DNA of 64,000 nucleotides. Origin: Candidatus Bipolaricaulia bacterium. GTDB taxonomy: Bacteria; Bipolaricaulota; Bipolaricaulia; JBHIAT01. Within the stretch, counting starts at the first letter, position 1, and the number at the start of each line of letters is the position of its first letter. The stretch covers positions 3,963 through 67,962 of the forward strand of contig JBHIAT010000001.1 of NCBI GenBank assembly GCA_046758705.1. The letters are read 5' to 3'. Shown piece after piece: positions 9,934 to 47,519 of the stretch. The notes beneath the pieces were generated by a model. That model made no database searches. It was not told the origin of the DNA and saw only the letters and a list, made by a program, of their open reading frames with translations. Made by a program: the position numbers and the translations under genes.

Positions 9934-12900
9934 TTATCCCAATAGATTCAGAAGATTCTCAGATAACTGACCACATGGCACCTCATTCAAAACTTGATTA
10001 CCTGGATCAACCGCTGGTCTTGCGGGATCGGTATTGACAGCGATGATGCAGTGATTCCCCTGGTTATTGGTTGTGTTATTCATGAGACTGCTGGTGGTAA
10101 ATAGCGATATCTTTAAGGGCGTTTCAGGATCAATCACCTCTTTGAACCGATTATCACTGGCCCTCAATGTAGCGCCACTAAGCAGGGTATTCATTACGAA
10201 CCCTCCCACATCCACAATTCCCCCTCCGAGAGCATCCGATTGATTCCCGTCGAACCCCACATCGTCCATCGACCCGATTAATTGTGAAGCGATACTGCTA
10301 CTACCGAAACCGAGACGTGTCTGGTTACTGTTGAAAAGGGTGTTACCGTTTGGCAGACGCAGCGTGATCCGTGACCTTCTGGAAAAAGTAGCAGACGGTG
10401 CAGCAGCAAAATGCGTTTCGGTCGTGCCTGTCGTGACATCACTACCAACCCCAGCAGTGGCCAAGCCGCCAAGATTGAATATGAGCACGGCTCCAGCGAG
10501 GCGTTCCAAAGCTTCAGGCCCGGATAACTCGCTGTTGAACTGGCTATTCAGGATGGAGACGGGACCCAATGATATGATGCTGAGAGCTTGACCTGCAGGC
10601 TGATCTACAACGTTATCATGAACCCGAGCAGCCGGTCTGCCTTTGGCAACCGTGTCGCGCGCGCCCGTGATCAGATCGAAGATCGAGAGTGAGGAGACGA
10701 TCCTCAAAACCACACCTCCTCTGATACCTGACTCCAAATCGGCATTGATGCTTTCCACCAACGGACCGTTATCGACAATATGATTCAGGGTAATATCCAC
10801 ATGTTCTCCATAGGTGAGATAAACACCACAGACAGGATTGATATGGTTTGCACCGTTATTCTCGATGCGATTTCCACGGATGGAAAGATCCTCACACATG
10901 CCCAAGGAAATACCGCCAAGACCTGTCTCCCTCACTCTGGTTCTCATCTCTTCATCAAAAGGGTGCTGTAGGCAATTGAAAATATGATTCCGATGGATGT
11001 TGAGGTTAATCACCGGATTCCCAAGCAGCGCAAGAATAGGCGTCATCGCTAAGGCAGTCGTTGGGACAGCTGACGGATCTGGAGGAGTTACATGAGGAAC
11101 TCCTATTCCAGATAGACCCATATTTGAGATCTCATTTCGATCAATCTGGATCTCGTAAATGAAAGCCAGCAGATCACCTAAATCGATTTCTTCTTCACCC
11201 ACGTCGATTCGGAAGCGCACAAATTCCCCACTACCTTCCGTTGTAATGCTTTCAATTTTGTAGCCAGGGGTTGTGATCGACACATTATAGTCACCTGGGG
11301 CAGCGGCTATCAAAAAGAAACCGGTATTATCCGTTGTAGCCGTTAATGTAGCGCCATCACTTTCCTCAAATAGCAGTGCGACACCTCCAAGGCCCGTTCC
11401 CTCGAACACGACCCTACCCCAGAGTGATCCCCCTGTATGCTCGATCACATGTTCGGTCTCCTCAGCTCTTTCATCAGAATCAGATGGACCGGGAAGCAGA
11501 GCCCCACCCAAAGTAATGCCGTTTCCCGCGCCCCCGTTGATCTCGTTTTCCAGCACTTTAATTCTTTCCGAACCACCGACGATTTGAATCCCTCCCAGGG
11601 CTTTGAATGGAGCTGGGGGGGGCAAGGTGATTGTGAATCCCCAAATCCAATTTACATATGCGACAAAGAAGGGGATATTGATGTATACGCGCTCCGGATC
11701 TGCACAGGGATCGATTGGATCAGGGGTCTCGTCTCCCGGGATGTCAACAGGAGGAATACTTTCTGCGGGAACTACGCCAATGTCGTTGCGCTCGATCACG
11801 CTATCTTCCGCCATGATATGGATGGCAACGTCGGCCCCCTCCTTGTCTAACATACTGATTTTGTTATGGTGAATATGGATCCCGACTCCTCGCTTCACCG
11901 AGATTGCATTCGCGTAAGCAAGCATCCGGTTGTTGCGTATCTCAACCTGTTGCAATGCGCCCAATTCTGTACCTTCCAAAACGATGGCCGTTCCGCCCAA
12001 AGTGACCATATCCATATCTTCCAAGATTATACATTGAGAGTCGATCACATGGAAAATGGACGCCTCCCGATCGGCTTCCCTGGGGATGATTTTCGTCTTT
12101 TTATCGCATCCTTTGATCTTGATGTTGTATTTCCCTTCGATGCACACATCGGCCTCATGCAATCCCGGCAAGAGGCATATTTCCCCGCCTGAACTGGGAA
12201 GATGCCGCACCGCTTCCTCTATCGAGTCGAAATCTCCATGGCCTGATTCTCCATCCCCAACTGTGAAAGAACAACAAACGGTCTGATTGGTGAGCGGTCG
12301 AAAAATATCGCGACAATCCTCGATCTCTTCCGTCTCGAAGCTGATGTCTTGATCACTATCCCAGTTCAGGATGGCCAGTGGCACACGATGGTAGTGAATG
12401 CCCTCCGGCGGTTCTTCGTCTATCAAAACCTCAGGATTGCCGATCTCACCTGCCCGGACCGGGAAAGTCCAGTAGTCTCCAGGCATATAGTGAGCCTCGA
12501 TGGGTAGTGCGAATTCCAGTCGAATCCCATCACGCAATTCAGTCGGATCAGGTCCTATAGAAAATTCGCCGATTTCTCTTATGTCGTTCCAGAGACGGAA
12601 AAATACGGATTCGCCGGAAGCAGGAATGGAGCCGAACATCGGCGCAGCGGGAAGATCGAGTTCGTTGCCGCTATTGAGCGTGACCTTTGCCCCATAGGTG
12701 ACGTTCCAATGGCCCAGGTCCTGATCGGACTCAACGGCTTCAAGATAAAACTCATTCAATCCAGACGTGACGATCGCTTGCAGATTGGCCGTGATCTCGA
12801 CCTTATTCGAATCAGCATGAAAGATCCCTCGTCCGACGAGACCGCCATTGAACTGAGACCACTTGAACATGGCGGCACCGCTGTTGACTTGAGCGATCTC

Positions 12901-13599
12901 TATGCGATAAAGGTGATGTTCAAATCCGGTGTAGCCGCCACCCTCAACCACCGGACAGTCTCCATCGATGACTGTAGTTGGCTGCAATGAAACCGTCAGT
13001 TTCCCCTTTTGTGAAAAGCCATCTTTCAGCTTATCCCCGATGTTATCACAGGTATCTCCATCTTCCAATCTGAGCAATCGGAAGGCCATCGCCGTGTGGA
13101 CTCTCTCCGTGGTATCGGGTCCACCCAACGCAGGCTCGATTAACGTTTCAGGCATTTGGAAGCCATTGATCGCTTCCCGCCAGATTTCAAGAATGACTGC
13201 ATCACGAATATCGGGACCTATCGGGTCGGCGGGAGGATCCTGAATGGGCGGTTGAAGGTAGGTGGCGATGCGGCGAACATCCGCCGTCGGATCAGGCGCT
13301 TCACCCGGCAAACAGAGCAAGAGTCCATCGGCCCATAGCCTACCCGGTGTGATCGTGAGTTCCACCTCGTTGGATGCATCAAGCAAAGCCCTTTGCACTT
13401 TAAAACTATCAGGCTCACTGGCCGGGACCGCTGCGACTCCCGGACCGATAGCGTCTCGACCCGCTTGATCCTGCCAATCGTTGGTTATTCTAGTTCGGGC
13501 ATTCCAGTCGCTGTCGAGCAAGACCCTGCCCTGCTGGTGCAACACACCATTAAAGTTCTTTTTAGGATCAAAACTCCATTTGGAAAAATCGCCTTTCAT
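9934..13599 (-). CDS. tail-fibre/receptor-binding-like protein with parallel beta-helix repeats and carboxypeptidase-regulatory-like domain
   Basis: 1221 aa; repeated beta-helix-like segments (IRNNRMLAYANAISVKRGVGIHIHHNKIS), CarboxypepD_reg-like segment (TDNTGFFLIAAAPGDYNVSITTPGYK); occupies the gpH/Afp13 position after gpI-like gene. Confidence 0.5.
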   Translation of the reverse strand: MKGDFSKWSFDPKKNFNGVLHQQGRVLLDSDWNARTRITNDWQDQAGRDAIGPGVAAVPASEPDSFKVQRALLDASNEVELTITPGRLWADGLLLCLPGEAPDPTADVRRIATYLQPPIQDPPADPIGPDIRDAVILEIWREAINGFQMPETLIEPALGGPDTTERVHTAMAFRLLRLEDGDTCDNIGDKLKDGFSQKGKLTVSLQPTTVIDGDCPVVEGGGYTGFEHHLYRIEIAQVNSGAAMFKWSQFNGGLVGRGIFHADSNKVEITANLQAIVTSGLNEFYLEAVESDQDLGHWNVTYGAKVTLNSGNELDLPAAPMFGSIPASGESVFFRLWNDIREIGEFSIGPDPTELRDGIRLEFALPIEAHYMPGDYWTFPVRAGEIGNPEVLIDEEPPEGIHYHRVPLAILNWDSDQDISFETEEIEDCRDIFRPLTNQTVCCSFTVGDGESGHGDFDSIEEAVRHLPSSGGEICLLPGLHEADVCIEGKYNIKIKGCDKKTKIIPREADREASIFHVIDSQCIILEDMDMVTLGGTAIVLEGTELGALQQVEIRNNRMLAYANAISVKRGVGIHIHHNKISMLDKEGADVAIHIMAEDSVIERNDIGVVPAESIPPVDIPGDETPDPIDPCADPERVYINIPFFVAYVNWIWGFTITLPPPAPFKALGGIQIVGGSERIKVLENEINGGAGNGITLGGALLPGPSDSDERAEETEHVIEHTGGSLWGRVVFEGTGLGGVALLFEESDGATLTATTDNTGFFLIAAAPGDYNVSITTPGYKIESITTEGSGEFVRFRIDVGEEEIDLGDLLAFIYEIQIDRNEISNMGLSGIGVPHVTPPDPSAVPTTALAMTPILALLGNPVINLNIHRNHIFNCLQHPFDEEMRTRVRETGLGGISLGMCEDLSIRGNRIENNGANHINPVCGVYLTYGEHVDITLNHIVDNGPLVESINADLESGIRGGVVLRIVSSLSIFDLITGARDTVAKGRPAARVHDNVVDQPAGQALSIISLGPVSILNSQFNSELSGPEALERLAGAVLIFNLGGLATAGVGSDVTTGTTETHFAAAPSATFSRRSRITLRLPNGNTLFNSNQTRLGFGSSSIASQLIGSMDDVGFDGNQSDALGGGIVDVGGFVMNTLLSGATLRASDNRFKEVIDPETPLKISLFTTSSLMNNTTNNQGNHCIIAVNTDPARPAVDPGNQVLNEVPCGQLSENLLNLLG

Positions 13600-13609
13600 C
13601 TTATCCTCC

Positions 13610-15952
13610 TTAAGTTACCGGTATCAGCAGGGGTCTCACCCCTACGGGCATAAATTCGCGGTAGCGGATTTGAATGTTACGCCACTTGTGGGCTTCTAAC
13701 AGAAAACCGAAGGCGCCCATCGCATCGTCATTCGGCCCTCTCTCTCGAATGCGAAAATCGGTGGTGTGGGCAAGCTGGCCGTAAGCGGGTTGGCCGAAGA
13801 TCTCGCTGACAAACCGAAGTTGGGCCTCCGTTCCATTAACACACCCGTGGTTCTGCGGCAGACGGTCTCCATTTCCGGAAAAATAGCTAAATTTGATACA
13901 CCCCTTCTGGTTCTGAAGCACTTCCAGGGCGTGAATCCATATTCCACCTCTGCCATTGATGCTCTCCACCCGCATGCGGCCAAAGACCGTGATGCCGTTC
14001 ACTTGTGTTGGTGGACCCCAGTCATCACTAGCACCTGAAATGGCAAATGATGCGGTTGCTGGGTCATCATTCACGCCTTTTCCAGCATCTATAATCGAGT
14101 CAGCGAGAAAGAGATGGTAGCCAGTATCGATAAAGAGTGGTCCGGTAATCGTGCGCTGCAGAATGATTTCAGGAGTTTGGTTGAACGCTTCTTCCTCATT
14201 CGCATCTGCAAATCCATAGGGTTCCTTAAGCCCCATCGAAGGATGGATTAGCGCATGCGTGCCATCGAGCTTTCTGAAACCTCCTGGATCGAGCGTGCAG
14301 TTGAAAATCTCAAGGTTGTGCAATGCCGCTCTCGCCATCAGAGGTTCATCCGTGGGAAAGCTATCGCCTCGGGTGGGATACAACCCCTCAAGCCGGACCG
14401 TCAGATTCGACATAACTGCGTCGAATTGTCTTTGTTCCTCATCGTTCGCACCTTTGACATGGGTTGGCCGGAAACGTAACGGTTGCGCCAGCTTGATGAT
14501 CGGCCGCTGATTGTCGGCAGCACGGATAATGAGAGATCTGTTTAATCGCAGATTGGGACCGCCATCTTCATCGATCGTTCCCCCGATGGCACTAAGGTCC
14601 AGTTCGTGCGCCATGCTGTCATGGATTTCAATGACGATTGGGGAAGGTGAATCCTGAATATCATTGAGTGCATCCCGTAGTCCATTAGGGTTTTGGTGAA
14701 AGTTAACTTCCTTGACGACGACCGGCTCATCGTTCCACTCCTGCGGCGAGGAAGGGTGCGATATCGGATGCGCACCTACGGGTCCCCCTGCACCGTAGGT
14801 ATACGTAAGCAACAGATGATCAACTAAGGCATCTCCATCATCCTCAGTGTCAACACCGATAACGATTCTGCCGATGACGGGATCAATGGCGATTTCACGG
14901 TTTTTTAGGGGGGGCTGCAGACCGGTCTCCCAGGCACACAGATTCGCTCCCCGAATAGACCAGCCTTCCCCCGTAAGTACCGATGGCAGGTGCAGTTGAA
15001 GTCCAACAACGGATATATCCAGCGATGCCAGGGTGGGATCATTATGGTCATACGTCTCGACAGCAACGTATTGAGTTGGGTCGCCTGCAGGCGAATCTTC
15101 GTTCAGACGAGCGATGTGGATCGGACCAGGAGTCTCATCTATTTGGGATACGACGGGAGGATCTCTATCGGGATCGAATCGGTGCGTGTTGAAGAGTCTG
15201 ACCGGTTCGCCCATGGGATGGACATCAAAGCGGGCGATGAAAGCTGCGGCATCTGGGAATTCTGATAGATCAATCGATGCAGCCCTGGGGTGTGCCCCTC
15301 TCGATATCGGTTTTGACACGGCCACCTGGTAAGCTTTCAAACGCCAGAGGAAGATGGCCAGGTTTGGAAGGTTGTACCGGATGTTGCCAAACGCCGGAGG
15401 TTTCAGATCGGCGGTATGGGCAAAGGGGTCGAACGGCGTGCTGAGTAGGGTTAACGTTGCCGGGTCGCGAAGCGTGACGGTTCCACCCCGGATCGGTGTA
15501 AATCGGGTAACGGACGGAAGCGCATAAGGCGGCTGACCTCCCTCATCGGGTCGCTGATGATTGAGGTGTTGGTTCCAAATCAGATTTTCTCTTAACTCAA
15601 CGCAATGCACACCCCACTGCGTCAGGTTGTACGTCAGCAGTTCTATGGCACCCAACGTGCCTTTGCGCCGGCGAAGGGCTATTGTATCGGCGACATCGGC
15701 CCTCAGCGTCCAAGGGTCTCCGGTCAGATGACTTGTGCCAAGCAGGTCGCCGATGTAGGGAATGACCCAGTCGTCACAGGTTTCGATGAACAGGTCGTGA
15801 TAGAGAGACTCGATATTTTCATGGATCGCGCCCAAGACCTCTTCGACTAAGGCAAGGTAGCTCTTGAGCTGGCCGGGAGGTTGTTGTTCCTCGTCTCTAA
15901 TTTTATAAATCTCAGGAAGTCGATCATAAAGAGGGACACGCGGTTCACTCAT
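13610..15952 (-). CDS. baseplate protein, P2 gpI-like (Tail_P2_I family) with long C-terminal extension
   Basis: N-terminus LYDRLPEIY...CDDWVIPYIGDLLG...ALRRRKGTLGAIELL matches the gpI family consensus (C-P..LLPWLA ... R.KGT..gl). Confidence 0.65.
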   Translation of the reverse strand: MSEPRVPLYDRLPEIYKIRDEEQQPPGQLKSYLALVEEVLGAIHENIESLYHDLFIETCDDWVIPYIGDLLGTSHLTGDPWTLRADVADTIALRRRKGTLGAIELLTYNLTQWGVHCVELRENLIWNQHLNHQRPDEGGQPPYALPSVTRFTPIRGGTVTLRDPATLTLLSTPFDPFAHTADLKPPAFGNIRYNLPNLAIFLWRLKAYQVAVSKPISRGAHPRAASIDLSEFPDAAAFIARFDVHPMGEPVRLFNTHRFDPDRDPPVVSQIDETPGPIHIARLNEDSPAGDPTQYVAVETYDHNDPTLASLDISVVGLQLHLPSVLTGEGWSIRGANLCAWETGLQPPLKNREIAIDPVIGRIVIGVDTEDDGDALVDHLLLTYTYGAGGPVGAHPISHPSSPQEWNDEPVVVKEVNFHQNPNGLRDALNDIQDSPSPIVIEIHDSMAHELDLSAIGGTIDEDGGPNLRLNRSLIIRAADNQRPIIKLAQPLRFRPTHVKGANDEEQRQFDAVMSNLTVRLEGLYPTRGDSFPTDEPLMARAALHNLEIFNCTLDPGGFRKLDGTHALIHPSMGLKEPYGFADANEEEAFNQTPEIILQRTITGPLFIDTGYHLFLADSIIDAGKGVNDDPATASFAISGASDDWGPPTQVNGITVFGRMRVESINGRGGIWIHALEVLQNQKGCIKFSYFSGNGDRLPQNHGCVNGTEAQLRFVSEIFGQPAYGQLAHTTDFRIRERGPNDDAMGAFGFLLEAHKWRNIQIRYREFMPVGVRPLLIPVT

Positions 15953-15953
15953 C

Positions 15954-18569
15954 TCAACATACCTCCATGGACTCCACAGTAGCGACTTTTAGCTGAAGAT
16001 GTTCCTTGTATAAACTGAGGACATGGTCGTTATCGCAGGAGACGGCAGAGTTTAAGGGTTTAGGTTCGGAAGGAAGACTGAGCTCTGAGGGATCGTCTGC
16101 TTCACCGAGAGAACCTAGCGCGGTGACCTTGGCCCACACCACACCTTCCACATCTTGGATGATCCCTGCTATCTTTGTGGCGTACTCGTTTTGTACGAAC
16201 CGACGTTGACGAAGCCCAAACAAACCTGCCGAACCATCGATAGCGTTGCCCTCCTCGCCGGTAACGCCCAACGTCTCTTTGATCGCTTTTTTCACCCGTT
16301 CTTCTCGAAAGGCTGGATCGAGAGCAAAGACGGCATCGATGTAGACGTATAGCAGCTTGCCTTGATGGACGATGATGGGAAACCGCTGCGGGCCACGACA
16401 CTTGTTGTAACCGTTTAGGATTTCTTGAACTGCCTCGAACTCTTGATCTCGTCCTGTTTCCATTAAGACAGTCAGGACAACGGTCGGGACATTATTGACC
16501 AATTCCCAAGCTGCGGTTACTTTTGAAACGCCTGATATGGCAAGGGTTTCGCTTTCGAAATCCTTTAGGCTGACAAGACGGTCAAGACTTTGGATTTTTC
16601 CTGGAGCGGCCTCCCTGGCATTGTCACCGCTTTCGGGCTCTGAGCCCCCGGAAACGACACCGGGCAGTTGAATCTTATCGAGGCGGTCCAGCTTGTCTCC
16701 GGGTTGCACGGTGGTCCCTTCCTTCAGGGCACCGTAGGCTCCTGTCCCAGTTCGATATTTGGCAACTACATTCCTGACGCCCGAGGGAAGTCGTGCTCCT
16801 GTTTTCCCATCGCCGAACTGCACCCAGCTCTCACCATTGGCATCTTCGCGAACGATGTAGATCTCCTCTTTGGGTCCCCGGTCGAAAAAGGAAGGGACTC
16901 TGGTCCATAGACGATCATTCACGTAGATCTGCAACTCGGGCACTTCGGGTGGAGTCTCTCCAGCAGAATTGTGATACGTTAAAGGTGCCTTGGGGAGTTT
17001 GAAAGTCTGGAACATCTGCCGACTGTCGCCATTGCCAAGCACGGCTTCTTTCTCGGTCTTGCCTTGAGTTGCATCGACAAGATTCCCGTAAACGGTAACG
17101 ACTGGATCTTCGAGTAACGGGAAGTCTTCAATACTAAAATCCTCAGAGAACTCTGACAGGTACAGGGGATACAGTTTCTCGCTATCATCGTCATCGAAAG
17201 AGACACTTGATTCGTCTATATTGGCGACGATTGCTTCGTGCGCTCCATCCTCTTTGACGAACAACAGAGATCGTCCGTCAAGCTGTTTGTACACTGGTGA
17301 GGTTCCAAAATAGAAAAGGGTGGTCAGATCTGAGGAGGCCACTTCTTGATAAGCACCCTGCAACGAGAAACGTTCCCCGATCACTTCAAGAAACTCCACA
17401 CTTCGAATATCTGTGTAGATTAGATCTTCATAAGAGACTGTAGCATCGAGTTCAATGACGGTGGTCCCTCCTGAAACGGCACCCCACATAAGGGATGCTT
17501 TTGTAATCTGGTCTATTCTTCTCTCGAAGAAATGCTCAGCCCCCCCACCTGAGGTAAAGCTGCTAAGTTGCAATTCAACTAACATCGTGGATCCCACGGG
17601 TATATCATCAACTTCTGCATTGAGAGGCATTGATGTGAAGTGGGGTAACGGAACGTAGGATCCGACAATATAGGCAATCAGCGGCGCACCGGATACCCAA
17701 CCCACTTGGCGACTAAAATCTACTGGATCCGTAACAGCCTGTGTGCCCTCTACTTTTACGGTCTCTGATGGTCCGTTGTAGCCAAAATGTCTGAAGGATC
17801 TTCCCAGTTTATAGGCATGAATCTGGCTTCCTACGAACCCTTCTTGCCAACTTCCTTCAATGTAAATCTCGGTTTTATCAAAACGTTCCTGTATATCTTC
17901 AATGATGACGATCTGCCATTTGGTAAGAGGGTCAGAGGGATCGATCACCAACAGTAGCTGATCCCCTTTGTTCAACTCTATGTTTTTTTCCTCGAGTACA
18001 GCGGTATCGATTGAAAAGGATTTCGTTCCGGTCGTGATATTTGGAATGTAATAAGATCGATATAAGCTGAACTGACTCAGTTCCGGATAGGCCGTGACCT
18101 CTGCAATTGTCTCAAAATCAGCGGGCTGTTCCAATCCTTCTACCTGCGCTTTAATTGGAAATCCCGCCGGGATCATCACTGGCTTGTCGTTCTTTACCTC
18201 GAAGGCGAAGGTGGTTCGGCCGCCCAGTCCCGGCGAGAGGCGATAGCCCAGGAGCCGGACCAAGTCGGCGATGCTTTCCCTCCATTGAGCCGTTCTCAAA
18301 TAAGCTTCATTGGCATAGAGTTCCTGATAGAAAGTCAGAATATCGCCCAGGATCGACGCGCCTTCCAGCAAAGCAATACCCGGATCGTCTGCCTCCCGAT
18401 GTGTCCAGCCTGCGAGAACCGGATCTTGATTCAGTCTCCGTAGAAGCGCTTCTCGGAAATTGGAATAGGTGCCGATGCGATAGTCGATGTGAGACAGACC
18501 CGGTCGATTGTTTGGTCTTTTCGGAAAGAGAAGCGGTTCAACGCAATCATTGCGGCAATCCGGGCTCAT
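15954..18569 (-). CDS. baseplate J-like protein (second paralog, gp6/gp7-like)
   Basis: IDYRIGTYSNFREALLRRL...DDPGIALLEGASILGDILTFYQELYANEAYLRTAQWRESIADLVRLLGY = Baseplate_J N-terminal consensus; ATGA start/stop overlap with upstream gene. Confidence 0.65.
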   Translation of the reverse strand: MSPDCRNDCVEPLLFPKRPNNRPGLSHIDYRIGTYSNFREALLRRLNQDPVLAGWTHREADDPGIALLEGASILGDILTFYQELYANEAYLRTAQWRESIADLVRLLGYRLSPGLGGRTTFAFEVKNDKPVMIPAGFPIKAQVEGLEQPADFETIAEVTAYPELSQFSLYRSYYIPNITTGTKSFSIDTAVLEEKNIELNKGDQLLLVIDPSDPLTKWQIVIIEDIQERFDKTEIYIEGSWQEGFVGSQIHAYKLGRSFRHFGYNGPSETVKVEGTQAVTDPVDFSRQVGWVSGAPLIAYIVGSYVPLPHFTSMPLNAEVDDIPVGSTMLVELQLSSFTSGGGAEHFFERRIDQITKASLMWGAVSGGTTVIELDATVSYEDLIYTDIRSVEFLEVIGERFSLQGAYQEVASSDLTTLFYFGTSPVYKQLDGRSLLFVKEDGAHEAIVANIDESSVSFDDDDSEKLYPLYLSEFSEDFSIEDFPLLEDPVVTVYGNLVDATQGKTEKEAVLGNGDSRQMFQTFKLPKAPLTYHNSAGETPPEVPELQIYVNDRLWTRVPSFFDRGPKEEIYIVREDANGESWVQFGDGKTGARLPSGVRNVVAKYRTGTGAYGALKEGTTVQPGDKLDRLDKIQLPGVVSGGSEPESGDNAREAAPGKIQSLDRLVSLKDFESETLAISGVSKVTAAWELVNNVPTVVLTVLMETGRDQEFEAVQEILNGYNKCRGPQRFPIIVHQGKLLYVYIDAVFALDPAFREERVKKAIKETLGVTGEEGNAIDGSAGLFGLRQRRFVQNEYATKIAGIIQDVEGVVWAKVTALGSLGEADDPSELSLPSEPKPLNSAVSCDNDHVLSLYKEHLQLKVATVESMEVC

Positions 18570-20974
18570 TGACGGCCTCCTCTCACATCAAAAAAGATGA
18601 ATCCTTTCTCCATGTGATCCGGGTCGTTCTTGACCTGGATGATTTCGTTGACGCGTACTTCGATAATGTTCTCTGTCCCTGGCGTCACTTCGTTCCAACG
18701 CTTCATGGTCACGGCAATCACATGATCGACGCCCTCGACCAACTGCACTCGTCCGATGATTTGACTTGCCCTGAGCTCTTGTCCAAACGTCCATTGGTCG
18801 GGGTGAAAAAACACCATTCTGCCATCCGGCGTATACCCGTCTGAAAACTCCTGCTCGAGAATGAATTTGATATCCTCCGGCCAGTAATCAGGATGAATAC
18901 AGAGTGAGACGTGTATTTCTAAGGGAACAAATCGTGGCGGCCGGATCTCCAGATCTTCTCCGATGAGCCGGACGGCATCCAGATGGCGTGCGATTTCCTT
19001 CCGCAGTTCTTCCTTCAGTTCGGTTGTGCCAACAGGGTCGATGGCGATTTGAACCGTTCTCCAACTCCCGGTCCAGGCGTACCTGGCCGCAGCTCTCGAA
19101 ACCTCATCGAGTTCTTCAGTGCGATCGACGTAATCTTTAAGAGTGACAGCACGGAGTTGTCGAAAGCGATAGGCTTCTGGAACACGGCGAATGATTTCGG
19201 CCACGGGTTCTGGAAACCGGCCATTGGTCACATCGAAGGGATTCCAACACTCCTCTATTTCAGGAAAAGCTGTTCTGTCGAAATGAATCAGCTGATCTGC
19301 ACCGATGTTACCGTCGAGGCCCCTACCGATTTGGTAAGAGCTGTGAACCTCAGCCTCGCCCGGGAACTCCTTTTCGTTGATGCCATTCCCAAAGCGAATC
19401 AGGCTTCGTCCGTCTTCGTCGGTTTCTACAACAAAGTGATCATCGCTATCATCACTGTGAATCAGATTGATGACTTCATTCCATTGATCGCTGCCGCCTC
19501 CAGGCGTTTCGACGGTCACTTCAAGCGTTGACTCCGGTGGCACTTCGCCTCCCGGAGATGTGCTTTTATAAGCGAGCGGTCCTTCAGGCAGCTCGCAGAT
19601 TGTGCCCCACCTTTCGGTTCTCTCATAATGAAATTCATCGGGACCTGTGAGGGTCGTTCCCGGCTCTTTGAAAACAACGGTTTTAGGGCGACCGTGGTAG
19701 ACCCCCACCAGATTCCCGTGAAAGAGGGAGACATCTTCGACCTTCCCATCGGGGCAGTCTACTGTGAAACAGTAATCACTTCTCAGTTCGTCCTTTTCCT
19801 CCCATCGGACCCGCACGAACCAATCTCCAGTCAGAGGGTCTTGCATGGTTTCAGCACCCTCATTTCCAGCTAACAGTTTCAATAACTGCCTTTTGGCAGG
19901 ATCTCTGCCTGCCGCCTCGCCGGTTGATGGATTGAACCACTCCTGAATCGAAAGATGCGTAATCTTCCCATCACGAATTAAATCTCGAACTATATTTGCC
20001 GATGCTTCTCCACCTACGGTGAGCTTCAGATCAGCACTGGTGCTTCCGGCTGCCAGAGCCGGGAGCGAATCACTCCACGTATACAGTCTCATCTGGCTGA
20101 GCAAATGGTGCATATGCTGTTGTTTCTGGGTCATGAAGAGAACGGAAGATGGGTCGTTGATATCATTTTCGTTTCCTGCCCAAACCAAAAAACCTTTGGG
20201 TAAATCGAATTCTTCACCATCGGCCAATTCCACGGCCAGCCAGGTGCTTGCCTGATTGCCCTGGTGGATGTGGTAATCCATCAATCGCGCATGCCGGGCC
20301 AGTGAAACTCGCTTGCGTGACGTACCGAGATAGGCCTCATTCATCACCCTGTCCTGGTAGTCACTGAGCTCGTCCGCGGCAGCACTGAAGAGTTCCGACA
20401 GGATTAGGCCCAGATCAGCTTCGCTGATAGCCTCCCAGTTCGGCACCCGTTCCATCATCGCTGCGATCATGGTATGCCGGAATGAATCGTAATCTTTGGC
20501 GAGGTAATCGATCGCAGGGTCTTCCTTCGGTTCAGGGGCAGGTTCCCAATCGGGTGCGCAATCGATATTGAAGCATCCAGGTCGGAATTTGAATTGCATT
20601 TCACTGAAGATAGGATCGATGTTTTGAAAATCAATACTCAACGTATAAGTGGAGTAATCTCCAATCGGTGCTACAGTCAGCACTAGAGAGTTATCAGCTG
20701 GGCCTCCCGAAATCGATACGACTTTGACTTGGTCAGCGCCTGGACCGGCGGGAATTCGATGACCTCCCGAAATGGGAAAGATCAATTTAGGCTCTTGAGG
20801 ATCCGCCAGAATATTGGCAACCTCATTATTGTTGTGGAAGTGGACCTCAAGGTGCGCTTCGGTGAGATTTGGAGCCGGATGTAAGGTTACCAGAACCAGG
20901 TTGAAACCATTGAGGCCTTGCGCTTCTAGATCATTCGCTCGCTCATTTAAAGCTTCTTGATTTTTAATGGCCAT
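18566..20974 (-). CDS. baseplate J-like protein (gpJ/gp6 homolog)
   Basis: IDYLAKDYDSFRHTMIAAMMERVPNWEAISEADLGLILSELF...SDYQDRVMNEAYLGTSRKRVSLARHARLMDY = Baseplate_J; start set to MAIKNQ (20974) right after the stop of the gp25-like gene; ORF-track N-terminal extension overlaps that gene and is rejected. Confidence 0.7.
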   Translation of the reverse strand: MAIKNQEALNERANDLEAQGLNGFNLVLVTLHPAPNLTEAHLEVHFHNNNEVANILADPQEPKLIFPISGGHRIPAGPGADQVKVVSISGGPADNSLVLTVAPIGDYSTYTLSIDFQNIDPIFSEMQFKFRPGCFNIDCAPDWEPAPEPKEDPAIDYLAKDYDSFRHTMIAAMMERVPNWEAISEADLGLILSELFSAAADELSDYQDRVMNEAYLGTSRKRVSLARHARLMDYHIHQGNQASTWLAVELADGEEFDLPKGFLVWAGNENDINDPSSVLFMTQKQQHMHHLLSQMRLYTWSDSLPALAAGSTSADLKLTVGGEASANIVRDLIRDGKITHLSIQEWFNPSTGEAAGRDPAKRQLLKLLAGNEGAETMQDPLTGDWFVRVRWEEKDELRSDYCFTVDCPDGKVEDVSLFHGNLVGVYHGRPKTVVFKEPGTTLTGPDEFHYERTERWGTICELPEGPLAYKSTSPGGEVPPESTLEVTVETPGGGSDQWNEVINLIHSDDSDDHFVVETDEDGRSLIRFGNGINEKEFPGEAEVHSSYQIGRGLDGNIGADQLIHFDRTAFPEIEECWNPFDVTNGRFPEPVAEIIRRVPEAYRFRQLRAVTLKDYVDRTEELDEVSRAAARYAWTGSWRTVQIAIDPVGTTELKEELRKEIARHLDAVRLIGEDLEIRPPRFVPLEIHVSLCIHPDYWPEDIKFILEQEFSDGYTPDGRMVFFHPDQWTFGQELRASQIIGRVQLVEGVDHVIAVTMKRWNEVTPGTENIIEVRVNEIIQVKNDPDHMEKGFIFFDVRGGRQ

Positions 20975-20976
20975 CC

Positions 20977-21363
20977 CTATCCACCACTCCGTTGAAATCT
21001 CATGACCCGGATATCCTCGGTCCCTGCGATCCGGTATTTGATCTCCACTTCGATCGTCTCGGTTTCTACAGTCACGGTGAGATCCTCTATGGTGATGCGG
21101 TGTCCCAACCAGCGTGAAATCGCCTGAGTGAGCGTGGCTTTTGTCATTCCCTCGGTCGTTGGATCCGCATTCTCGAAGACGAGACGACGGACCCCGCCTC
21201 CGAATTCCGGCAGAAAAACCCGTTCGCCAAGATTGGTCAGGATCAATTGGATCAGCTCCTCTCGGACATGATCCTTCACAGAGGAGACCCGAACAGTTCG
21301 TCCATCTTTCCCGATGCGGAATGGAAAGGATAAATGTCTTCCATAATCCTCTGTCATTGCCAA
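20977..21363 (-). CDS. baseplate wedge protein gp25/gpW-like
   Basis: LSFPFRIGKDGRTV...EELIQLILTNLGERVFLPEFGGGVRRLVFE matches GPW_gp25 consensus. Confidence 0.8.
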   Translation of the reverse strand: MAMTEDYGRHLSFPFRIGKDGRTVRVSSVKDHVREELIQLILTNLGERVFLPEFGGGVRRLVFENADPTTEGMTKATLTQAISRWLGHRITIEDLTVTVETETIEVEIKYRIAGTEDIRVMRFQRSGG

Positions 21364-21433
21364 TCCTCAATCATTGTGTAGACACCTTAGTCCGACGGTG
21401 AGATGTGAAATGGATAATCCGTATAATCTAGCA

Positions 21434-21706
21434 TCACGGTTTAACACCAATTGTAGGGTGTCCATCATGAGTGTGTGTTCCGTCTTCCAAATGTATCTGG
21501 AATGCCTGCTCGTTGTTTTTGAGGTGATTGATCACTCCACGTGCAATGGCGATAAATAGCATTCGCCGATCCCGGTTACCCAGGGGAATTGGATCCATCC
21601 CCTCCTTGGCGCGCAGGTCATTCAGTGCTTTCTCAATCTCACCAGCCATGCTATTCTCGAATTGACCCTGTGGCTCATTTAGCGATCCACCATACAACTC
21701 TTCCAT
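21434..21706 (-). CDS. small hypothetical protein in the spike-tip (PAAR) position; not PAAR-like
   Basis: 90 aa, His-rich C-terminus (HLEDGTHTHDGHP); between gpV-like spike and gp25-like genes. Confidence 0.4.
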   Translation of the reverse strand: MEELYGGSLNEPQGQFENSMAGEIEKALNDLRAKEGMDPIPLGNRDRRMLFIAIARGVINHLKNNEQAFQIHLEDGTHTHDGHPTIGVKP

Positions 21707-21716
21707 GTGATTCCTC

Positions 21717-22439
21717 CTATCCAGACTTGACTTTCATCGAAAGCAAACTCGGCGTTGCCGGTGGGAAAGGCGGTACCGGTGTTGTTGGAGTAACAGGAAT
21801 AAACCCGGCAGCCAGTTCACCTGGATGAATATGGCTGTTGAACAAGTTTACGAGCAGGTTTAAATATTGCAAAAGGTTATCACCGAACACCACCGGGTGC
21901 ATGGCGTTCTCCACCAGTTCGATTTGCGGCGCCTCGACAACAGCTTTGACCGCACCCTGGATCGTGATCTGGCCCTGCTGTACTTTAATCGTTAACATAT
22001 TGCTACCCTTCTCGTCACTCAACGTGATCGTTTGGCTGCCGTCATCCAGCGTGACCATCAACCCTTTCTCACTGCGAATGATCTTGAGCGGTGGTGTGGC
22101 CGCCGTACCGCTGTTATCCTTGGGCAACTCCCCTCCACCCCACCAACAGCCACTCCAAATAGGACGAGAGACGTCCCCTGCCTCAAACTCGATCCACACG
22201 CCGGCACCGATAGGAGGGATCATGAACTGTCCCTCCCCGTCCCCGGAGTAGGGAATGGATGGCAGTGCCCAGGGAGAGTCTACTTCTTCTCCATAGACCT
22301 CGGGAACCTGGGCGATAATGCGACCCAGATTCTCTGGATCATCCACATCTCGAACAAGGCCTCGATACTTGCCGAAATAACGGGAATGCATGAATTCAGC
22401 CGCTTCGACAACTAACTTCTCCATCTCCAAATCAGGCAT
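21717..22439 (-). CDS. baseplate spike protein, gpV/gp5 OB-fold family
   Basis: GRIIAQVPEVYGEEVDSPWALPSIPYSGDGEGQFMIPPIGAGVWIEFEAGDVSRPIW = Phage_base_V consensus. Confidence 0.75.
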   Translation of the reverse strand: MPDLEMEKLVVEAAEFMHSRYFGKYRGLVRDVDDPENLGRIIAQVPEVYGEEVDSPWALPSIPYSGDGEGQFMIPPIGAGVWIEFEAGDVSRPIWSGCWWGGGELPKDNSGTAATPPLKIIRSEKGLMVTLDDGSQTITLSDEKGSNMLTIKVQQGQITIQGAVKAVVEAPQIELVENAMHPVVFGDNLLQYLNLLVNLFNSHIHPGELAAGFIPVTPTTPVPPFPPATPSLLSMKVKSG

Positions 22440-23584
22440 CAGAATATACCTCCCGCTAGATTCGTCAAGCTGCCGTTGGAACGCTCAATCTTAGATTGAG
22501 CATCCGTCTTCAAAGAAAAAGACTGAGAATAAATCGAGCGTGTTAAACCGTGGGTAACCTTGGTGATCAAATAATTTCCGCTTAACGGAGTCTCTCCCGC
22601 TTTGACGGTCACGAGGCGATAGGGTCGTAGCACACCCAGGTAACAACCCTCCAGAACACTTCCTGTCGCCTCAAAGGCGTAACTCGATTCATCGACCTTG
22701 GCTGATACGGCTTGATCCAGATCTACGGACTCACCCTGACGGGGAGGAAGGATCTGAACCGCTGGCTCTTCGCCTTCTTCTAATGTAGCTTTCTGTCCTA
22801 ACAGTTCACGATCCCGAAAGCTCGCCGTGCTGGAAACTACCCCCTTGTCTGTGATGCGAAGGGTGGAAGCCCTCACAACAGAAGGCTTCTGGGCATTTTT
22901 CTTGACGTTAAATGATTTAATATTTCGGTCCGATCCCAGTAAGATGAGTGGAGGAAGCTCATCTGTTTGTTGCGGAAGGTCTGATGGTTTTGGAAAAAAC
23001 TTGAAGTTGCCGACACTTTGCCCTGGACGGTCACCTGGAAAAACATAGGCATGCATTCCCTGACGTTTTGCCAACGACCTCAGTATTTGCATCGATGTGC
23101 CACGCTGAATGACTGGTGGAGGAGCACTGCCTGGTGGGGACGTATCGTCGATGTCAGTAGCGGCTATCTGTTCGAAGTCGTCGAATATTTGCTTGGCGAT
23201 TTCATGATCCAATCGACCTTCAAACCGTGAGACGTTGTCTTCCCGATTCAAAAAGACGCTATCATCCTGGACAATCAAGGTGATAGCACTTTGTCCCGGC
23301 TCTGAACTTTTCGGGCTGTCAGATTTGACGATCGGTCCGTCAATCAGGGGTACAAAAGGCGCTTTTCCGATTTTGATTTCCACCCTTATCCGTGAAAAAG
23401 GCTTCATAAAATCCTCGTCTTCTCCTGTCCATTTTCCCTTCTCATCAACACAAATAGGGATCTCAATACGGGCTTCCCACGCCATGTCCACTTCCTGCTC
23501 CACGGTGATCTCTTCGACTCTGTCCAACTGCTCTCGCGTAGCAGGTTTGTTGTTGAAAAACAGTCTGTATGCGATATCCGACAT
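22439..23584 (-). CDS. baseplate hub protein, phage late-control D (gpD/gp27-like)
   Basis: 381 aa; C-terminal GNYLITKVTHGLTRSIYSQSFSL matches gpD family C-terminus; ATGA coupling to flanking genes. Confidence 0.6.
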   Translation of the reverse strand: MSDIAYRLFFNNKPATREQLDRVEEITVEQEVDMAWEARIEIPICVDEKGKWTGEDEDFMKPFSRIRVEIKIGKAPFVPLIDGPIVKSDSPKSSEPGQSAITLIVQDDSVFLNREDNVSRFEGRLDHEIAKQIFDDFEQIAATDIDDTSPPGSAPPPVIQRGTSMQILRSLAKRQGMHAYVFPGDRPGQSVGNFKFFPKPSDLPQQTDELPPLILLGSDRNIKSFNVKKNAQKPSVVRASTLRITDKGVVSSTASFRDRELLGQKATLEEGEEPAVQILPPRQGESVDLDQAVSAKVDESSYAFEATGSVLEGCYLGVLRPYRLVTVKAGETPLSGNYLITKVTHGLTRSIYSQSFSLKTDAQSKIERSNGSLTNLAGGIF

Positions 23585-44434: not shown

Positions 44435-44485
44435 TCCTGCGTTGCAGGGTCGCAGCCGATCGTGGTATGATGCGATAGGGAGCGC

Positions 44486-44983
44486 TCAGGAAGGTTTGGA
44501 CCGCCCTTCTTTCCCTTCCCCGTCTATATCCAGGATCTTCTCCAGTTCCCACTGGACCTCTCGCTTCTCTATCTCTTGGATCAGTTCTTCGATCTCCTGG
44601 TCGCGTCTGGAGATGGCCCGCGATACGATCGTGTAAAACTTCCTGATCTGGGCTTCGCTGAGGCCGGACCGCTTCAGGACCCCGTGGATCAGCTCGAACT
44701 CTAACGCCGCCCACGCCTTCATCGTCGTGGGCTCAGGCCATCCTTCGGCGATCCTGTTCTTCAACTCCTCCTGGAACATGCGCCAGAAACGCTCGTGCTC
44801 CTCCCAGTTGATCGCTATCAGCGCCTCCTGGATCGCCTCTCCGTCGCCGCCGAACCGGACGAAATCGGTGAAGTCCGCGAAGTTAAGGTCCATGGTCCCG
44901 TTCAATCCTGTTTGAGCTTGAAGATCTTCTCCAGCTTCCGGATGACCATGAACATAGTCCAGAAGCGCTTTTTTCGCTCCCAA
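44486..44983 (-). CDS. hypothetical protein
   Basis: 165-aa ORF, no recognisable motif. Confidence 0.3.
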   Translation of the reverse strand: MGAKKALLDYVHGHPEAGEDLQAQTGLNGTMDLNFADFTDFVRFGGDGEAIQEALIAINWEEHERFWRMFQEELKNRIAEGWPEPTTMKAWAALEFELIHGVLKRSGLSEAQIRKFYTIVSRAISRRDQEIEELIQEIEKREVQWELEKILDIDGEGKEGRSKPS

Positions 44984-45218
44984 TCGAGTTGGACATTCTC
45001 CAGTGCCGCTTCGATGAGATCGAGGTCAATGAAGCCCCATGGATACACAGTTGCCCCCCACAGATCGATGAGTCGAATCGCAACTTTACCGATTGAGACC
45101 TTAGACAGCCCCGTTGCCCGTTGACAACTCAGCAGCAGCTATTCTATACTCAGGAACAACCGGTGTAACATTACAAGTATTATATATCCAATAACGAGTT
45201 TTTGAAAGGGAGGTCCCC

Positions 45219-45362
45219 GTGGAGATCAAGCAGATCGAGGTCTATCGTATCTCCATCTCGCTCTCTTAACCGTTTGTCATCTCCCTCGGGGAGATCACCG
45301 CCAGCGAAGGAGTGATCGTCAAGATCAGCAACGATCGCGGTCAGATCGGCTGGGGGGAGCCC
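45219..45362 (+). pseudogene. N-terminal fragment of dipeptide-epimerase-like (enolase superfamily) gene with in-frame TAA
   Basis: GTG start with AAAGGGAGG SD; VEIKQIEVYRISISLS*PFVISLGEITASEGVIVKISNDRGQIGWGEP; TAA at 45267-45269 where paralogs have a residue; homology ends at ~45362. Confidence 0.6.
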
Positions 45363-45379
45363 GTCTGGCGTCTCCTCGG

Positions 45380-45730
45380 CGGGTATCACAGCGAACGACT
45401 CGAGACGGATTACACGGTCAACCACCCCACGGCTAAAGCCGGGAGCTTGCAGGAGAGATCTGCAAGCCTGGTTGACCAGGGAAAGCCGGGGAGCCTGGTA
45501 AGCGATGATCCGGCTACGTTAGGATGCAGGGTCACAGATCCACCAGCGGATGCTTCCTCAGTTCGCTGCTCTGGAAGGTCTGACTGTAGACAAGCGCAGG
45601 GGTACGCACGAAACAGGTCAAATCGGGGCGTAAGCCCACGCCCACCCAGCATCCAAACAGTCCCGAGGGGAGACTTCCGGGCCGCCAACTCGGAAGCGTC
45701 ACCCGCATCAGCGGAGCGGAGGTAACTCCA
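45380..45730 (+). ncRNA. candidate IscB omega-RNA scaffold (and IS left end)
   Basis: ~350 nt non-coding stretch immediately 5' of iscB with several stem-loops (e.g. gcttgcag-gagagat-ctgcaagc at ~45432-45456); position matches known omega-RNA location; boundaries not determinable. Confidence 0.35.
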
Positions 45731-47035
45731 ATGCAAAACCGGGTTTTTGTTCTGGACAAGCATAGCAGGCCCCTGATGCCAACGCATCCAGCCAGGGCAC
45801 GGCAGTTGCTCAAGCAAGGGCGGGCCGTGATTCACCAGCGTGTCCCGTTTACCATCCGGCTCAAGGATCGGGTAGACGGAGAGGGCCAACCGGTACGGCT
45901 CAAGATCGACCCCGGCAGCAAGACCACCGGCATAGCCATCGTGAGAGAGGACGGCGCCAGGGCCGAAGTTCTGCACTTGGCAGAGCTGTACCACAAGCAA
46001 GGTATCCGTAAAGCGATGGAGCAGCGGCGCAACTACCGCCGCCACCGGCGTTCGGCCAACTTGCGCTATCGGGCCCCGCGTTTCAACAACCGCGCCCGAC
46101 CCAAGGGCTGGCTGCCGCCGTCTTTGCAGGCGCGGGTAGATAACGTGTCGTCGTGGGTGAAGCGCTACCGCAGGCTTGTGCCGCTGACCGCCATCTCGGT
46201 CGAGATAGTGCGATTCGATACCCAGAAGCTCCAGAATCCGGAGATTTCCGGCGTCGAGTACCAGCACGGGGAGTTATTGAGTTATGAGGTGCGCGAGTAC
46301 CTTCTGGAGAAGTGGGACCGCAGATGCGCCTACTGCGGTGCAGAAGGCGTCCCGCTCCAGGTCGAGCATATTGTCCCATGCAGCCGGGGAGGCTCCGACC
46401 GGTTGTCTAACCTGACACTCTCCTGTGGCCCGTGCAACCAACGGAAGAACAACCAGACCGCAGTCGAATTCGGCCACCCAGAGGTTCAGGTGCAAGCGAG
46501 GCAGCCACTCAAGGACACCGCAGCCATTAACACGACCCGGTGGGCCGTCTACCGGGCGTTGGTGGCGAGCGACCTGCCGGTGGAGGTGGGAACAGGTGGG
46601 TGGACGAAGTACAACCGCACCCGCCTGGGATTACCCAAGAGCCATGCCCTGGACGCCCTGTGTGTAGGGGCGTCTACACCGGATAGGATTGCCGGGTTGG
46701 AAAAGGCAACAGTGCTGATCATCCAAGCCAGGGGGCGGGGGCAGTACCGGCGTACCAACGTGGACCGCTATGGCTTCCCCAGGGGGTATCTGGCCCGGCG
46801 GAAGGGGGTGGCGGGTTTTCAGACTGGTGACCTGGTGCAAGCCATCGTGCCAGGTGGGAAGTATGCCGGGACGCACGAGGGGACAGTGCAGGTGCGACAG
46901 TCAGGTTATTTTGACATCAGTCGAGACGGGAAGCGGATTGTGCAAGGGATTCATGCTCGCCACTTTCGATTGATACAGAGATTTGACGGTTATTCCTATA
47001 AGAGAGAAGGTCCGGTCCTTCCTCTCCATGCCTGA
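45731..47035 (+). CDS. iscB: IscB, IS200/IS605-family OMEGA RNA-guided nuclease (PLMP-RuvC-BH-HNH-RuvC)
   Basis: PLMP motif (HSRPLMPTHPARARQLLKQGRAV), RuvC-I IDPGSKTTGIAIV, Arg-rich bridge RRNYRRHRRSANLRYRAPRFNNR, HNH CAYCGAEGVPLQVEHIVPCSRGGSDRLSNLTLSCGPCNQRKNN, RuvC-III SHALDALCVGAS. Confidence 0.85.
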   Translation: MQNRVFVLDKHSRPLMPTHPARARQLLKQGRAVIHQRVPFTIRLKDRVDGEGQPVRLKIDPGSKTTGIAIVREDGARAEVLHLAELYHKQGIRKAMEQRRNYRRHRRSANLRYRAPRFNNRARPKGWLPPSLQARVDNVSSWVKRYRRLVPLTAISVEIVRFDTQKLQNPEISGVEYQHGELLSYEVREYLLEKWDRRCAYCGAEGVPLQVEHIVPCSRGGSDRLSNLTLSCGPCNQRKNNQTAVEFGHPEVQVQARQPLKDTAAINTTRWAVYRALVASDLPVEVGTGGWTKYNRTRLGLPKSHALDALCVGASTPDRIAGLEKATVLIIQARGRGQYRRTNVDRYGFPRGYLARRKGVAGFQTGDLVQAIVPGGKYAGTHEGTVQVRQSGYFDISRDGKRIVQGIHARHFRLIQRFDGYSYKREGPVLPLHA

Positions 47036-47519
47036 AGGTGTGAGCTTCCGGGCCGAGAATCTGGTGAGCCTGGGAGAGGTGGAGGCGATGGCCCGAGAGG
47101 CTCAGGATCTGGTCGAAGCGGGGTTCAAAGTCCTGAAGCTTAAGTTGGGCACGGATCCCAGAGTGGACGTCGACCGGGTCCGGGCGGTGCGTCACGCGGT
47201 CGGGGAGCGGATCCGATTGCGGCTCGACGCCAATCAGGGATGGACGCGTCAACAAGCGATTGCGGTTTTGAATCGGGCCGCCGATTATGACGTGGAGCTC
47301 GTTGAACAACCGGTCGCCGCCGTCCAGTTCGCCGCCGCGACCCGCAACGTCCGGTTCCGAGATCTCGATATGGGAACAGAGTTAGAGGAATCGTTGATCA
47401 GACGAGGCGGATCGGAGCTGGCCGACGGTCACCGGATCGTCCCTCAACCCCCCGGCCTGGGGATCGAGGCGGTCAACGAAGCGCTGCTCGGGGAACCGGC
47501 GGTGGTCTACCGAAGTTGA
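47036..47519 (+). pseudogene. C-terminal remnant of the same dipeptide-epimerase-like gene (internally deleted)
   Basis: EGVSFRAENLVSLGEVEAMAREAQDLVEAGFKVLKLKLGTDPRVDVDRVRAVRHAVGERIRLRLDANQGWT...PGLGIEAVNEALL; middle barrel segment missing. Confidence 0.55.

Follow-up and report, generated by a model that had tools for sequence, protein, structure and literature searches.

The locus at 45219-47519 of a 64,000-nucleotide stretch of DNA from Candidatus Bipolaricaulia bacterium (GenBank assembly GCA_046758705.1, contig JBHIAT010000001.1, positions 3,963 to 67,962 of the forward strand; hereafter "the window", with positions counted from its first letter) raises the question of what kind of element has interrupted a dipeptide-epimerase-like gene, and what has become of its mobility. 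Our analysis leads to the conclusion that the interrupting feature is very probably a non-autonomous IS200/IS605-type element, which comprises only an omega-RNA gene and iscB and resides in a dipeptide-epimerase gene that died independently of it. The directly observed evidence consists of the family membership of both the protein and the RNA, the intact catalytic residues, a clean insertion junction, and an end architecture shared with multi-copy relatives. A preliminary description, made from the sequence alone, had proposed a solo IscB element at this place; its observation was confirmed in part and its interpretation is supported, with errors confined to the coordinates of the host gene fragments and to the attribution of the missing codons. 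The element is an ordinary member of a well-known family, already annotated as IscB by NCBI, and the significance of the present results lies mostly in annotation, namely in the precise ends of the element and in the prediction of a 16-nt guide and a GTGAG motif. They also illustrate that IscB elements can be spotted by sequence reading alone.

The iscB coding sequence (45731-47035, forward strand, 434 aa) was delineated from the list of open reading frames (ORFs) together with profile matches. It matches the NCBIfam equivalog NF040563 (guided_IscB) with 441.8 bits against a cut-off of 175, over the full length of the profile (positions 1-314 of 314), the whole Pfam RRXRR profile (4.2e-72, 242 bits against a cut-off of 25), and three HNH models (Pfam HNH at 7e-12, residues 199-242). 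In the search of solved structures, the top matches are all IscBs (TbaIscB, 1.4e-53; HfmIscB, 3.4e-33; OgeuIscB, 4e-33) and cover residues 5-398, with IsrB and small Cas9s ranked below them at far weaker scores. Alignment to the OgeuIscB chain places the RuvC set D60, E158, H305, and D308 opposite D61, E193, H340, and D343, and H213 of the HNH domain (residues 199-247) opposite H247; N227 and N236 are also present, and the zinc-binding Cys4 set (C199, C202, C232, C235) is complete. The PLMP motif is found at residues 14-17, and the Arg-rich bridge helix RRNYRRHRRSANLRYRAPRFNNRARPKGW (residues 99-127) aligns to those of the solved IscBs. The retained HNH insert, with its His/Asn residues and Cys4, sets the protein apart from IsrB. 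The hallmarks ascribed to this ORF at the outset (PLMP, the RRXRR region, the split RuvC, and the HNH insert) are thus borne out, with the RuvC and HNH residues present on alignment to solved IscBs, and the protein reads as a full-length IscB whose catalytic residues appear to be intact. An identical protein (P0001) is present in NCBI under the name 'MAG: RNA-guided endonuclease IscB [Candidatus Bipolaricaulia bacterium]'. In a search of 5.8 billion proteins, those next in similarity are 72-74% identical, and a scan of GTDB genomes revealed no relative with more than 60% identity. A second 434-aa ORF of the window (2919-4223, reverse strand) was considered as another IscB and rejected (BLASTP E 2.2).

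Upstream of iscB, the Rfam family HEARO (RF02033) matches 45417-45678 on the forward strand with 96.1 bits (gathering score 83, E 2e-18, model positions 1-211), and this is the sole Rfam match above the gathering score across the 64 kb. HEARO has later been shown to be the omega-RNA of IscB (Meers et al. 2023, bioRxiv 10.1101/2023.03.14.532601). The match ends 52 nt before the iscB ATG, and we infer that the scaffold extends in the 3' direction towards the iscB ribosome-binding site, so as to span 45417-45725; the site itself was read from the sequence as GGAGG at 45718-45722 (forward strand), 8 nt before the ATG. In an alignment with the HEARO matches of 12 relatives, compensatory double changes occur in 29 of the 38 consensus pairs, and the minimum free energy of the region has a z-score of -2.6. 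Both the 5' stem (GUCAAC...GUUGAC) and the pseudoknot-forming helices in the centre are conserved; the alignment contains insertions in two hairpins, and the score of 96 bits lies near the low end of the range observed in relatives (84-159 bits). The first bases of the scaffold, GTCAA (reverse complement TTGAC), at the same time constitute the transposon-encoded end motif. The covariance model therefore placed a structured RNA where the preliminary description had expected one, although of the roughly 370 bp regarded there as structured non-coding DNA only about 314 bp are non-coding, while 45360-45416 still encodes host protein. Every defining feature of IscB and HEARO that a sequence can reveal was found at this locus.

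The whole element occupies 45417-47063 on the forward strand (1647 bp), and joining 45416 to 47064 restores the reading frame of the host gene. Its start coincides with HEARO position 1 and with the start of the repeat unit in multi-copy relatives, and its last bases, ...GAGAATCTG, adjoin the host GTGAG. The host sequence joined across the junction reads ...GACGGATTACACG/GTGAGCCTGGGAG..., and the corresponding protein, TDYTV/SLGEVEAMA, aligns without gaps to YkfB (TDYTVSVNSPEEMA), with the frame resuming at 47064 as V-SLGEVEAMAREAQDLVEAGF opposite V-SVNSPEEMAADAENYLKQGF. This junction rests on the protein alignment to YkfB (PDB 1jpm); a search for a close intact epimerase orthologue that would provide an empty site at the DNA level yielded only fragments, with 42-66% identity. 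With G/GT common to both junctions, the position of the boundary is ambiguous by -1 to +2 nt. We found neither duplicated bases at the junctions 45416/45417 and 47063/47064 nor a flanking direct repeat, and the insertion reads as clean, without target duplication, and in the same orientation as the host gene. The preliminary description had ended the left host fragment at 45362 and let the host gene resume at 47036; host coding in fact continues to 45416 and resumes at 47064, and the segment 47036-47063 is the end of the element.

The two flanks belong, as had been proposed, to one gene of the enolase superfamily encoding a dipeptide epimerase: the remnants share one frame and align colinearly to YkfB/1jpm (1.5e-32), and MR_MLE_C is matched at 2e-29 in two separate stretches. 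All pieces lie on the forward strand. Piece A (45219-45359) corresponds approximately to YkfB residues 1-47, ends with ...GWGE, and contains an in-frame TAA at 45267-45269, and piece B (PVWRLLGGYHSERLETDYT, 45360-45416) was assigned approximately to residues 118-135 from the alignment to 1jpm. Beyond the element, pieces C and D (47064-47519) correspond approximately to residues 136-222 and 306 to the end, respectively, with the stop codon at 47517-47519; piece C retains the KxK motif and, from the metal site, the first Asp as well as the Glu. At 45359/45360, an in-frame deletion has removed about 70 codons of the capping domain (approximately YkfB 48-117), and near 47317-47322 a second in-frame deletion has removed about 83 codons of the barrel (approximately YkfB 223-305), the region in which YkfB has its third metal ligand and its second catalytic Lys. 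The missing codons thus total about 150, and none of them was lost at the element, contrary to the earlier proposal of about 100 barrel codons missing at the insertion: the junction is clean, and the losses stem from two separate deletions, one of which lies in the capping domain. With the TAA and both deletions, the epimerase gene is a pseudogene even without the insertion. Both deletions are in frame, as is the element, whose 1647 bp are a multiple of three, which is probably a coincidence.

The two ends of the element (GTCAACCACCCC and GAGAATCTG) display a layout typical of this class of transposons. At the omega-RNA end, the sequence contains a subterminal hairpin, CCCCACGGC-TAAA-GCCGGGAG (45425-45445, forward strand), which is the counterpart of a hairpin at the other end, TCCATGCC-TGAA-GGTGTGAG, identified by comparison with relatives and followed by CTTCC (47025-47049 on the forward strand, of which the hairpin takes up 47025-47044); the iscB stop codon sits in the loop of the latter. 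Equivalent hairpin pairs are found at both ends of the relatives. After the end hairpin come CTTCC, a 14-nt linker, and the host GTGAG, in agreement with the relatives, in which the hairpin is followed by T or C, TTCC, 10-20 nt, and the adjacent motif. Homologous ends are present in three related loci: L092 (GGAGAATCTG/ATGAT), L025 (GCAATCTG/ATGAA), and L093 (GAGATTCT/ATGAA). The locus thus combines defined ends, subterminal hairpins, a short adjacent motif, and the lack of a target-site duplication, as expected for an IS200/IS605-type element. An 11-nt direct repeat (CTTCCGGGCCG, at 45674 and 47045) was dismissed, as its occurrence in 2.7 kb is approximately at the chance level.

The comparison with multi-copy relatives lends further weight to these boundaries. 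A Paracoccaceae metagenome-assembled genome (MAG; CAXXGT01, loci L005-L013 and L053) carries at least 10 copies of an IscB element that are about 99% identical and have unrelated flanks, and Desulfobacter latus AcRS2 (L015-L042) carries at least 16 near-identical copies, also with different flanks; the elements in these two genomes are about 1.62-1.65 kb long. Judging from these copies, both families have clearly been active recently, and they lend themselves to the definition of ends and motifs. Pairs or triplets of elements with the same GTCA start occur in Malikia, Fischerella, and Calothrix. Among the multi-copy relatives, identity begins exactly at GTCA, with a different upstream flank in every copy, and breaks off a few dozen bases past the stop codon of iscB, just before or at ATGAN.

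The predicted transposon/target-adjacent motif (TAM) of the window element, GTGAG, is located at 47064-47068 on the forward strand, within the host Val-Ser codons of TDYTVS, its junction being set by the host frame; read as the reverse complement, CTCAC, it directly adjoins the canonical left end. Most relatives carry ATGAN where the window has GTGAG, and the arrangement hairpin-T-TTCC...ATGAN is found in at least 11 independent families. The arrangement hairpin-C-TTCC...GTGAN occurs in the window, in L083, which encodes a 72% identical IscB, in L059 and L060, and possibly in L074; L083 is the closest relative with flanking DNA and carries C...GTGAG just as the window does. The association between C or T beside the hairpin and G or A as the first motif base has a Fisher p of ~0.001, a value uncorrected for relatedness. 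Meers et al. (bioRxiv 10.1101/2023.03.14.532601) report that TnpA recognises the motif through pairing between it and a DNA guide adjoining the hairpin of the left end, that IscB recognises the same motif, and that the TAM covaries with the left-end DNA guide; the motif of GstIscB is ATGAA, or TTCAT when read from the opposite strand. In the window element, CTTCC read on the other strand would serve as this DNA "guide", at the foot of the hairpin. The joint change of T to C and of A to G is of the compensatory kind to be expected if, on the strand on which TnpA acts, the hairpin-adjacent base forms a pair with the first base of the motif. Because of this matching T-to-C change beside the end hairpin, GTGA rather than ATGA is probably the cognate adjacent motif of this sublineage. 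The idea that GTGAG is a degraded or mutated ATGAA, and the element therefore crippled, was dropped in view of the C...GTGAG pairing in L083 and also in L059 and L060. Covariation of the motif with the DNA guide is not new in principle, and the window adds one more natural example of it.

The omega-RNA end of the element corresponds to the transposon right end in the IS200/IS605 nomenclature, and iscB elements are biased towards the orientation of the upstream gene (Meers et al., bioRxiv 10.1101/2023.03.14.532601). Here the element is co-oriented with the epimerase pseudogene and with a near-consensus, sigma-70-type promoter-like site upstream of it and outside the element (TTGACA-18-TATACT, 45121-45150, forward strand, 11 of 12 consensus matches), which fits the reported bias and suggests read-through expression. 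In the region, 3 promoter-like sites were found where 0.8 were expected (consensus match only). With the guide length of 16 nt given in the IscB literature, the predicted guide-specifying flank CGAGACGGATTACACG (45401-45416, forward strand), placed relative to HEARO position 1, directly precedes the scaffold on its 5' side and is unique in the window. By analogy with the family, the guide would indeed be set by host DNA on the 5' side of the omega-RNA, as suggested earlier.

In proposing a mechanism for this element we follow, by inference, the one that has been published for its family (Altae-Tran 2021; Meers et al. 2023, bioRxiv 10.1101/2023.03.14.532601). Transcription, probably from the host promoter near 45121-45150, would read through into the omega-RNA, the 5' portion of which, about 16 nt long (CGAGACGGAUUACACG), would derive from the host flank and be fused to the scaffold. 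TnpA supplied in trans would excise the element and leave the donor joint CGAGACGGATTACACG/GTGAG, which the complex of IscB with the RNA would recognise and cut on both strands, one by HNH and the other by RuvC. The element would then be restored by recombinational repair, with a sister chromosome that still bears it as the template. The occupied site would be spared from self-cutting because GTCAA, and not GTGAG, follows the guide match.

Several observations weigh against a mobile element of this kind, or against the details of our reconstruction. No tnpA was found in the 64 kb by tblastn with IS608 and IS200 TnpA sequences as queries, and there is no second copy of the element in the window, which has one HEARO match and one iscB. 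The three Logan contigs that encode the exact protein represent the same locus, 100% identical with the pseudogene included, and an exact search of the JGI metagenomes returned neither the empty donor joint GACGGATTACACGGTGAGCCTGGGAGA nor the left end of the element. Among the 5.8 billion proteins no relative is closer than 74% identity. In the RNA, one hairpin of the HEARO alignment fits poorly (model positions ~136-172). As for the motif, Variovorax ginsengisoli (L064, ~4380-4430) is the one exception to the covariation, combining C with ATGAT, and the GTGA lineages are few and not all independent. The best TnpA-like tblastn match (19592-19660, 23 aa, E 0.001) was judged to be due to chance, as it lies out of frame inside the gene for a 934-aa protein and has no ORF of its own. 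The preliminary description of the element as solo, without tnpA, holds for the 64-kb window. The lack of tnpA in cis is the usual state, because only about 1.5% of iscB genes have tnpA nearby and about 98% do not (Meers et al., bioRxiv 10.1101/2023.03.14.532601).

These observations could also be accommodated by the view that the locus contains a genuine IscB element that is no longer mobile, i.e. a single copy stranded without a compatible TnpA, whose intact ORF would indicate a recent arrival headed for decay. It is consistent with the single copy found, with the lack of tnpA in the window, and with the stop codon and two large deletions in the surrounding gene, which show that the locus drifts neutrally. 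Nevertheless, the iscB ORF is of full length and has all the catalytic and zinc residues, the omega-RNA scores above the Rfam gathering cut-off, and the end hairpin, the linker, and the adjacent motif look cognate. Moreover, nearly all iscB genes lack a nearby tnpA anyway, and within this genome the search for copies and for tnpA covered the 64-kb window. We regard such stranding as possible, but on the whole unlikely.

A more far-reaching idea is that the element belongs to a small sublineage in which the DNA guide of the transposase, the motif, and the nuclease have switched jointly from ATGA to GTGA, and that a single intact copy is kept in a genome that possibly lacks TnpA. If this very improbable combination were true, the joint switch and the retention of a single copy would imply that selection keeps the nuclease and the RNA for something other than transposon homing. 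A related proposal holds that IscB and its RNA have been domesticated for a host function, for instance in defence or in fixed-guide regulation, and have ceased to be a selfish element; it can point to an intact single-copy gene in a decayed locus that is identical in three metagenome samples. These samples, however, come from one study, and their identity says nothing about long-term conservation. The transposon ends, the hairpins, and the adjacent motif are all kept in the form seen in mobile relatives, the guide has no match in the window other than its own flank, and the neighbours of the locus, a peptide ABC transporter and an aminotransferase, offer no host-function context, so that we consider domestication very improbable.

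Two other assignments of the protein deserve hardly any credence. The HNH domain and the JGI label '5-methylcytosine-specific restriction endonuclease McrA', given to relatives, could suggest a plain HNH/McrA-type restriction endonuclease with an incidental structure upstream, but HNH accounts only for residues 199-247, the rest being RRXRR/PLMP and a split RuvC, the upstream RNA is of the IscB-specific HEARO family, and the matches to IscB structures and to the equivalog refute this assignment. The weak partial matches to Cas9d and Cas9 models, restricted to the HNH region, are far below the cut-offs (54.6 bits where 375 are required, and 27.6 bits where 100 are), and the window has HEARO and transposon ends instead of a CRISPR array (a single trivial tandem repeat of 9 bp was found, and Rfam gave no CRISPR match), which speaks against a miniature CRISPR-associated Cas9-like effector, either of type II-D or a CRISPR-associated IscB.

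Some loci around the element and among its relatives are worth recording in their own right. At 6176-23584 on the reverse strand, the window contains very large genes with eCIS_core (6176-9004, 3e-32), HHH_5, DUF6519 with a beta-helix (9937-13599), and Phage_base_V (21720-22439, 2e-22) domains, as well as three proteins of 780-934 aa without a Pfam match; from its domain content this looks like an extracellular contractile injection system or a phage-tail-like cluster. The Logan contig L081 begins with 317 nt that differ from the window, which it matches only from 44482 on, and L082 starts exactly at 44482, which thus appears as an assembly or strain breakpoint; a 165-aa ORF without a Pfam match (44486-44983, reverse strand) adjoins it. 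Among the relatives, L094 (ENA ERZ24794671, region 1-550) is of note for a gene with a CRISPR_Cas6 domain, and about 950 bp downstream of it lies the gene for a 70% identical IscB, with a GTCAAC start 283 nt upstream of the ATG of this iscB; this locus lay outside the HEARO scan. Another 70% identical IscB (P0021) is found in the same context in six assemblies (L086-L091; JGI, ENA, and Logan contigs), adjoining an SSB gene and small genes without a Pfam match, possibly in a phage or plasmid; of these loci the HEARO scan covered only L086, in which it returned no match at the gathering score.

Among known systems, the reading of the locus as a non-autonomous IscB element finds its closest counterparts in the IscB-omegaRNA (OMEGA) elements of the IS200/IS605 superfamily, e.g. 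those of GstIscB and OgeuIscB (PDB 7UTN, 7XHT). They share with the window element the domain order PLMP, RuvC-I, bridge helix, RuvC-II, HNH, RuvC-III, and C-terminal domain, a HEARO-type RNA directly upstream on the same strand, a boundary at the first base of the scaffold, a hairpin at the far end with an NTGA-type motif, the lack of a target duplication and of tnpA in cis, and the orientation of the upstream gene. The differences are that OgeuIscB is longer (496 aa against 434 aa) and only about 30% identical to the window IscB, that the motif predicted here is GTGAG as compared with ATGAA for GstIscB and NWRRNA for OgeuIscB, and that a single copy was found; a compact IscB of 434 aa with a likely GTGA-type motif may be of some interest to collectors of small editors with varied motifs. 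TbaIscB (PDB 9k30), the best match among solved structures, aligns in two segments (residues 4-125 and 118-316) that cover PLMP, RuvC, HNH, and RuvC-III, but it is a protein of 1068 aa and has a large N-terminal extension, which the window IscB lacks. The RNA resembles the HEARO RNA of Weinberg and Breaker (Rfam RF02033) in its full-model-length match above the gathering cut-off and in its conserved 5' stem. The host gene resembles the L-Ala-D/L-Glu epimerase YkfB (PDB 1jpm) in its colinear remnants and in the KxK, Asp, and Glu residues that are kept, and differs from it by the premature TAA and the deletion of about 70 and 83 codons. With Cas9 and IsrB, the window protein has in common the RuvC and bridge-helix core, and with Cas9 also the HNH insert; unlike Cas9, the system has no REC lobe, CRISPR array, or tracrRNA, and unlike IsrB, it has retained the HNH domain.

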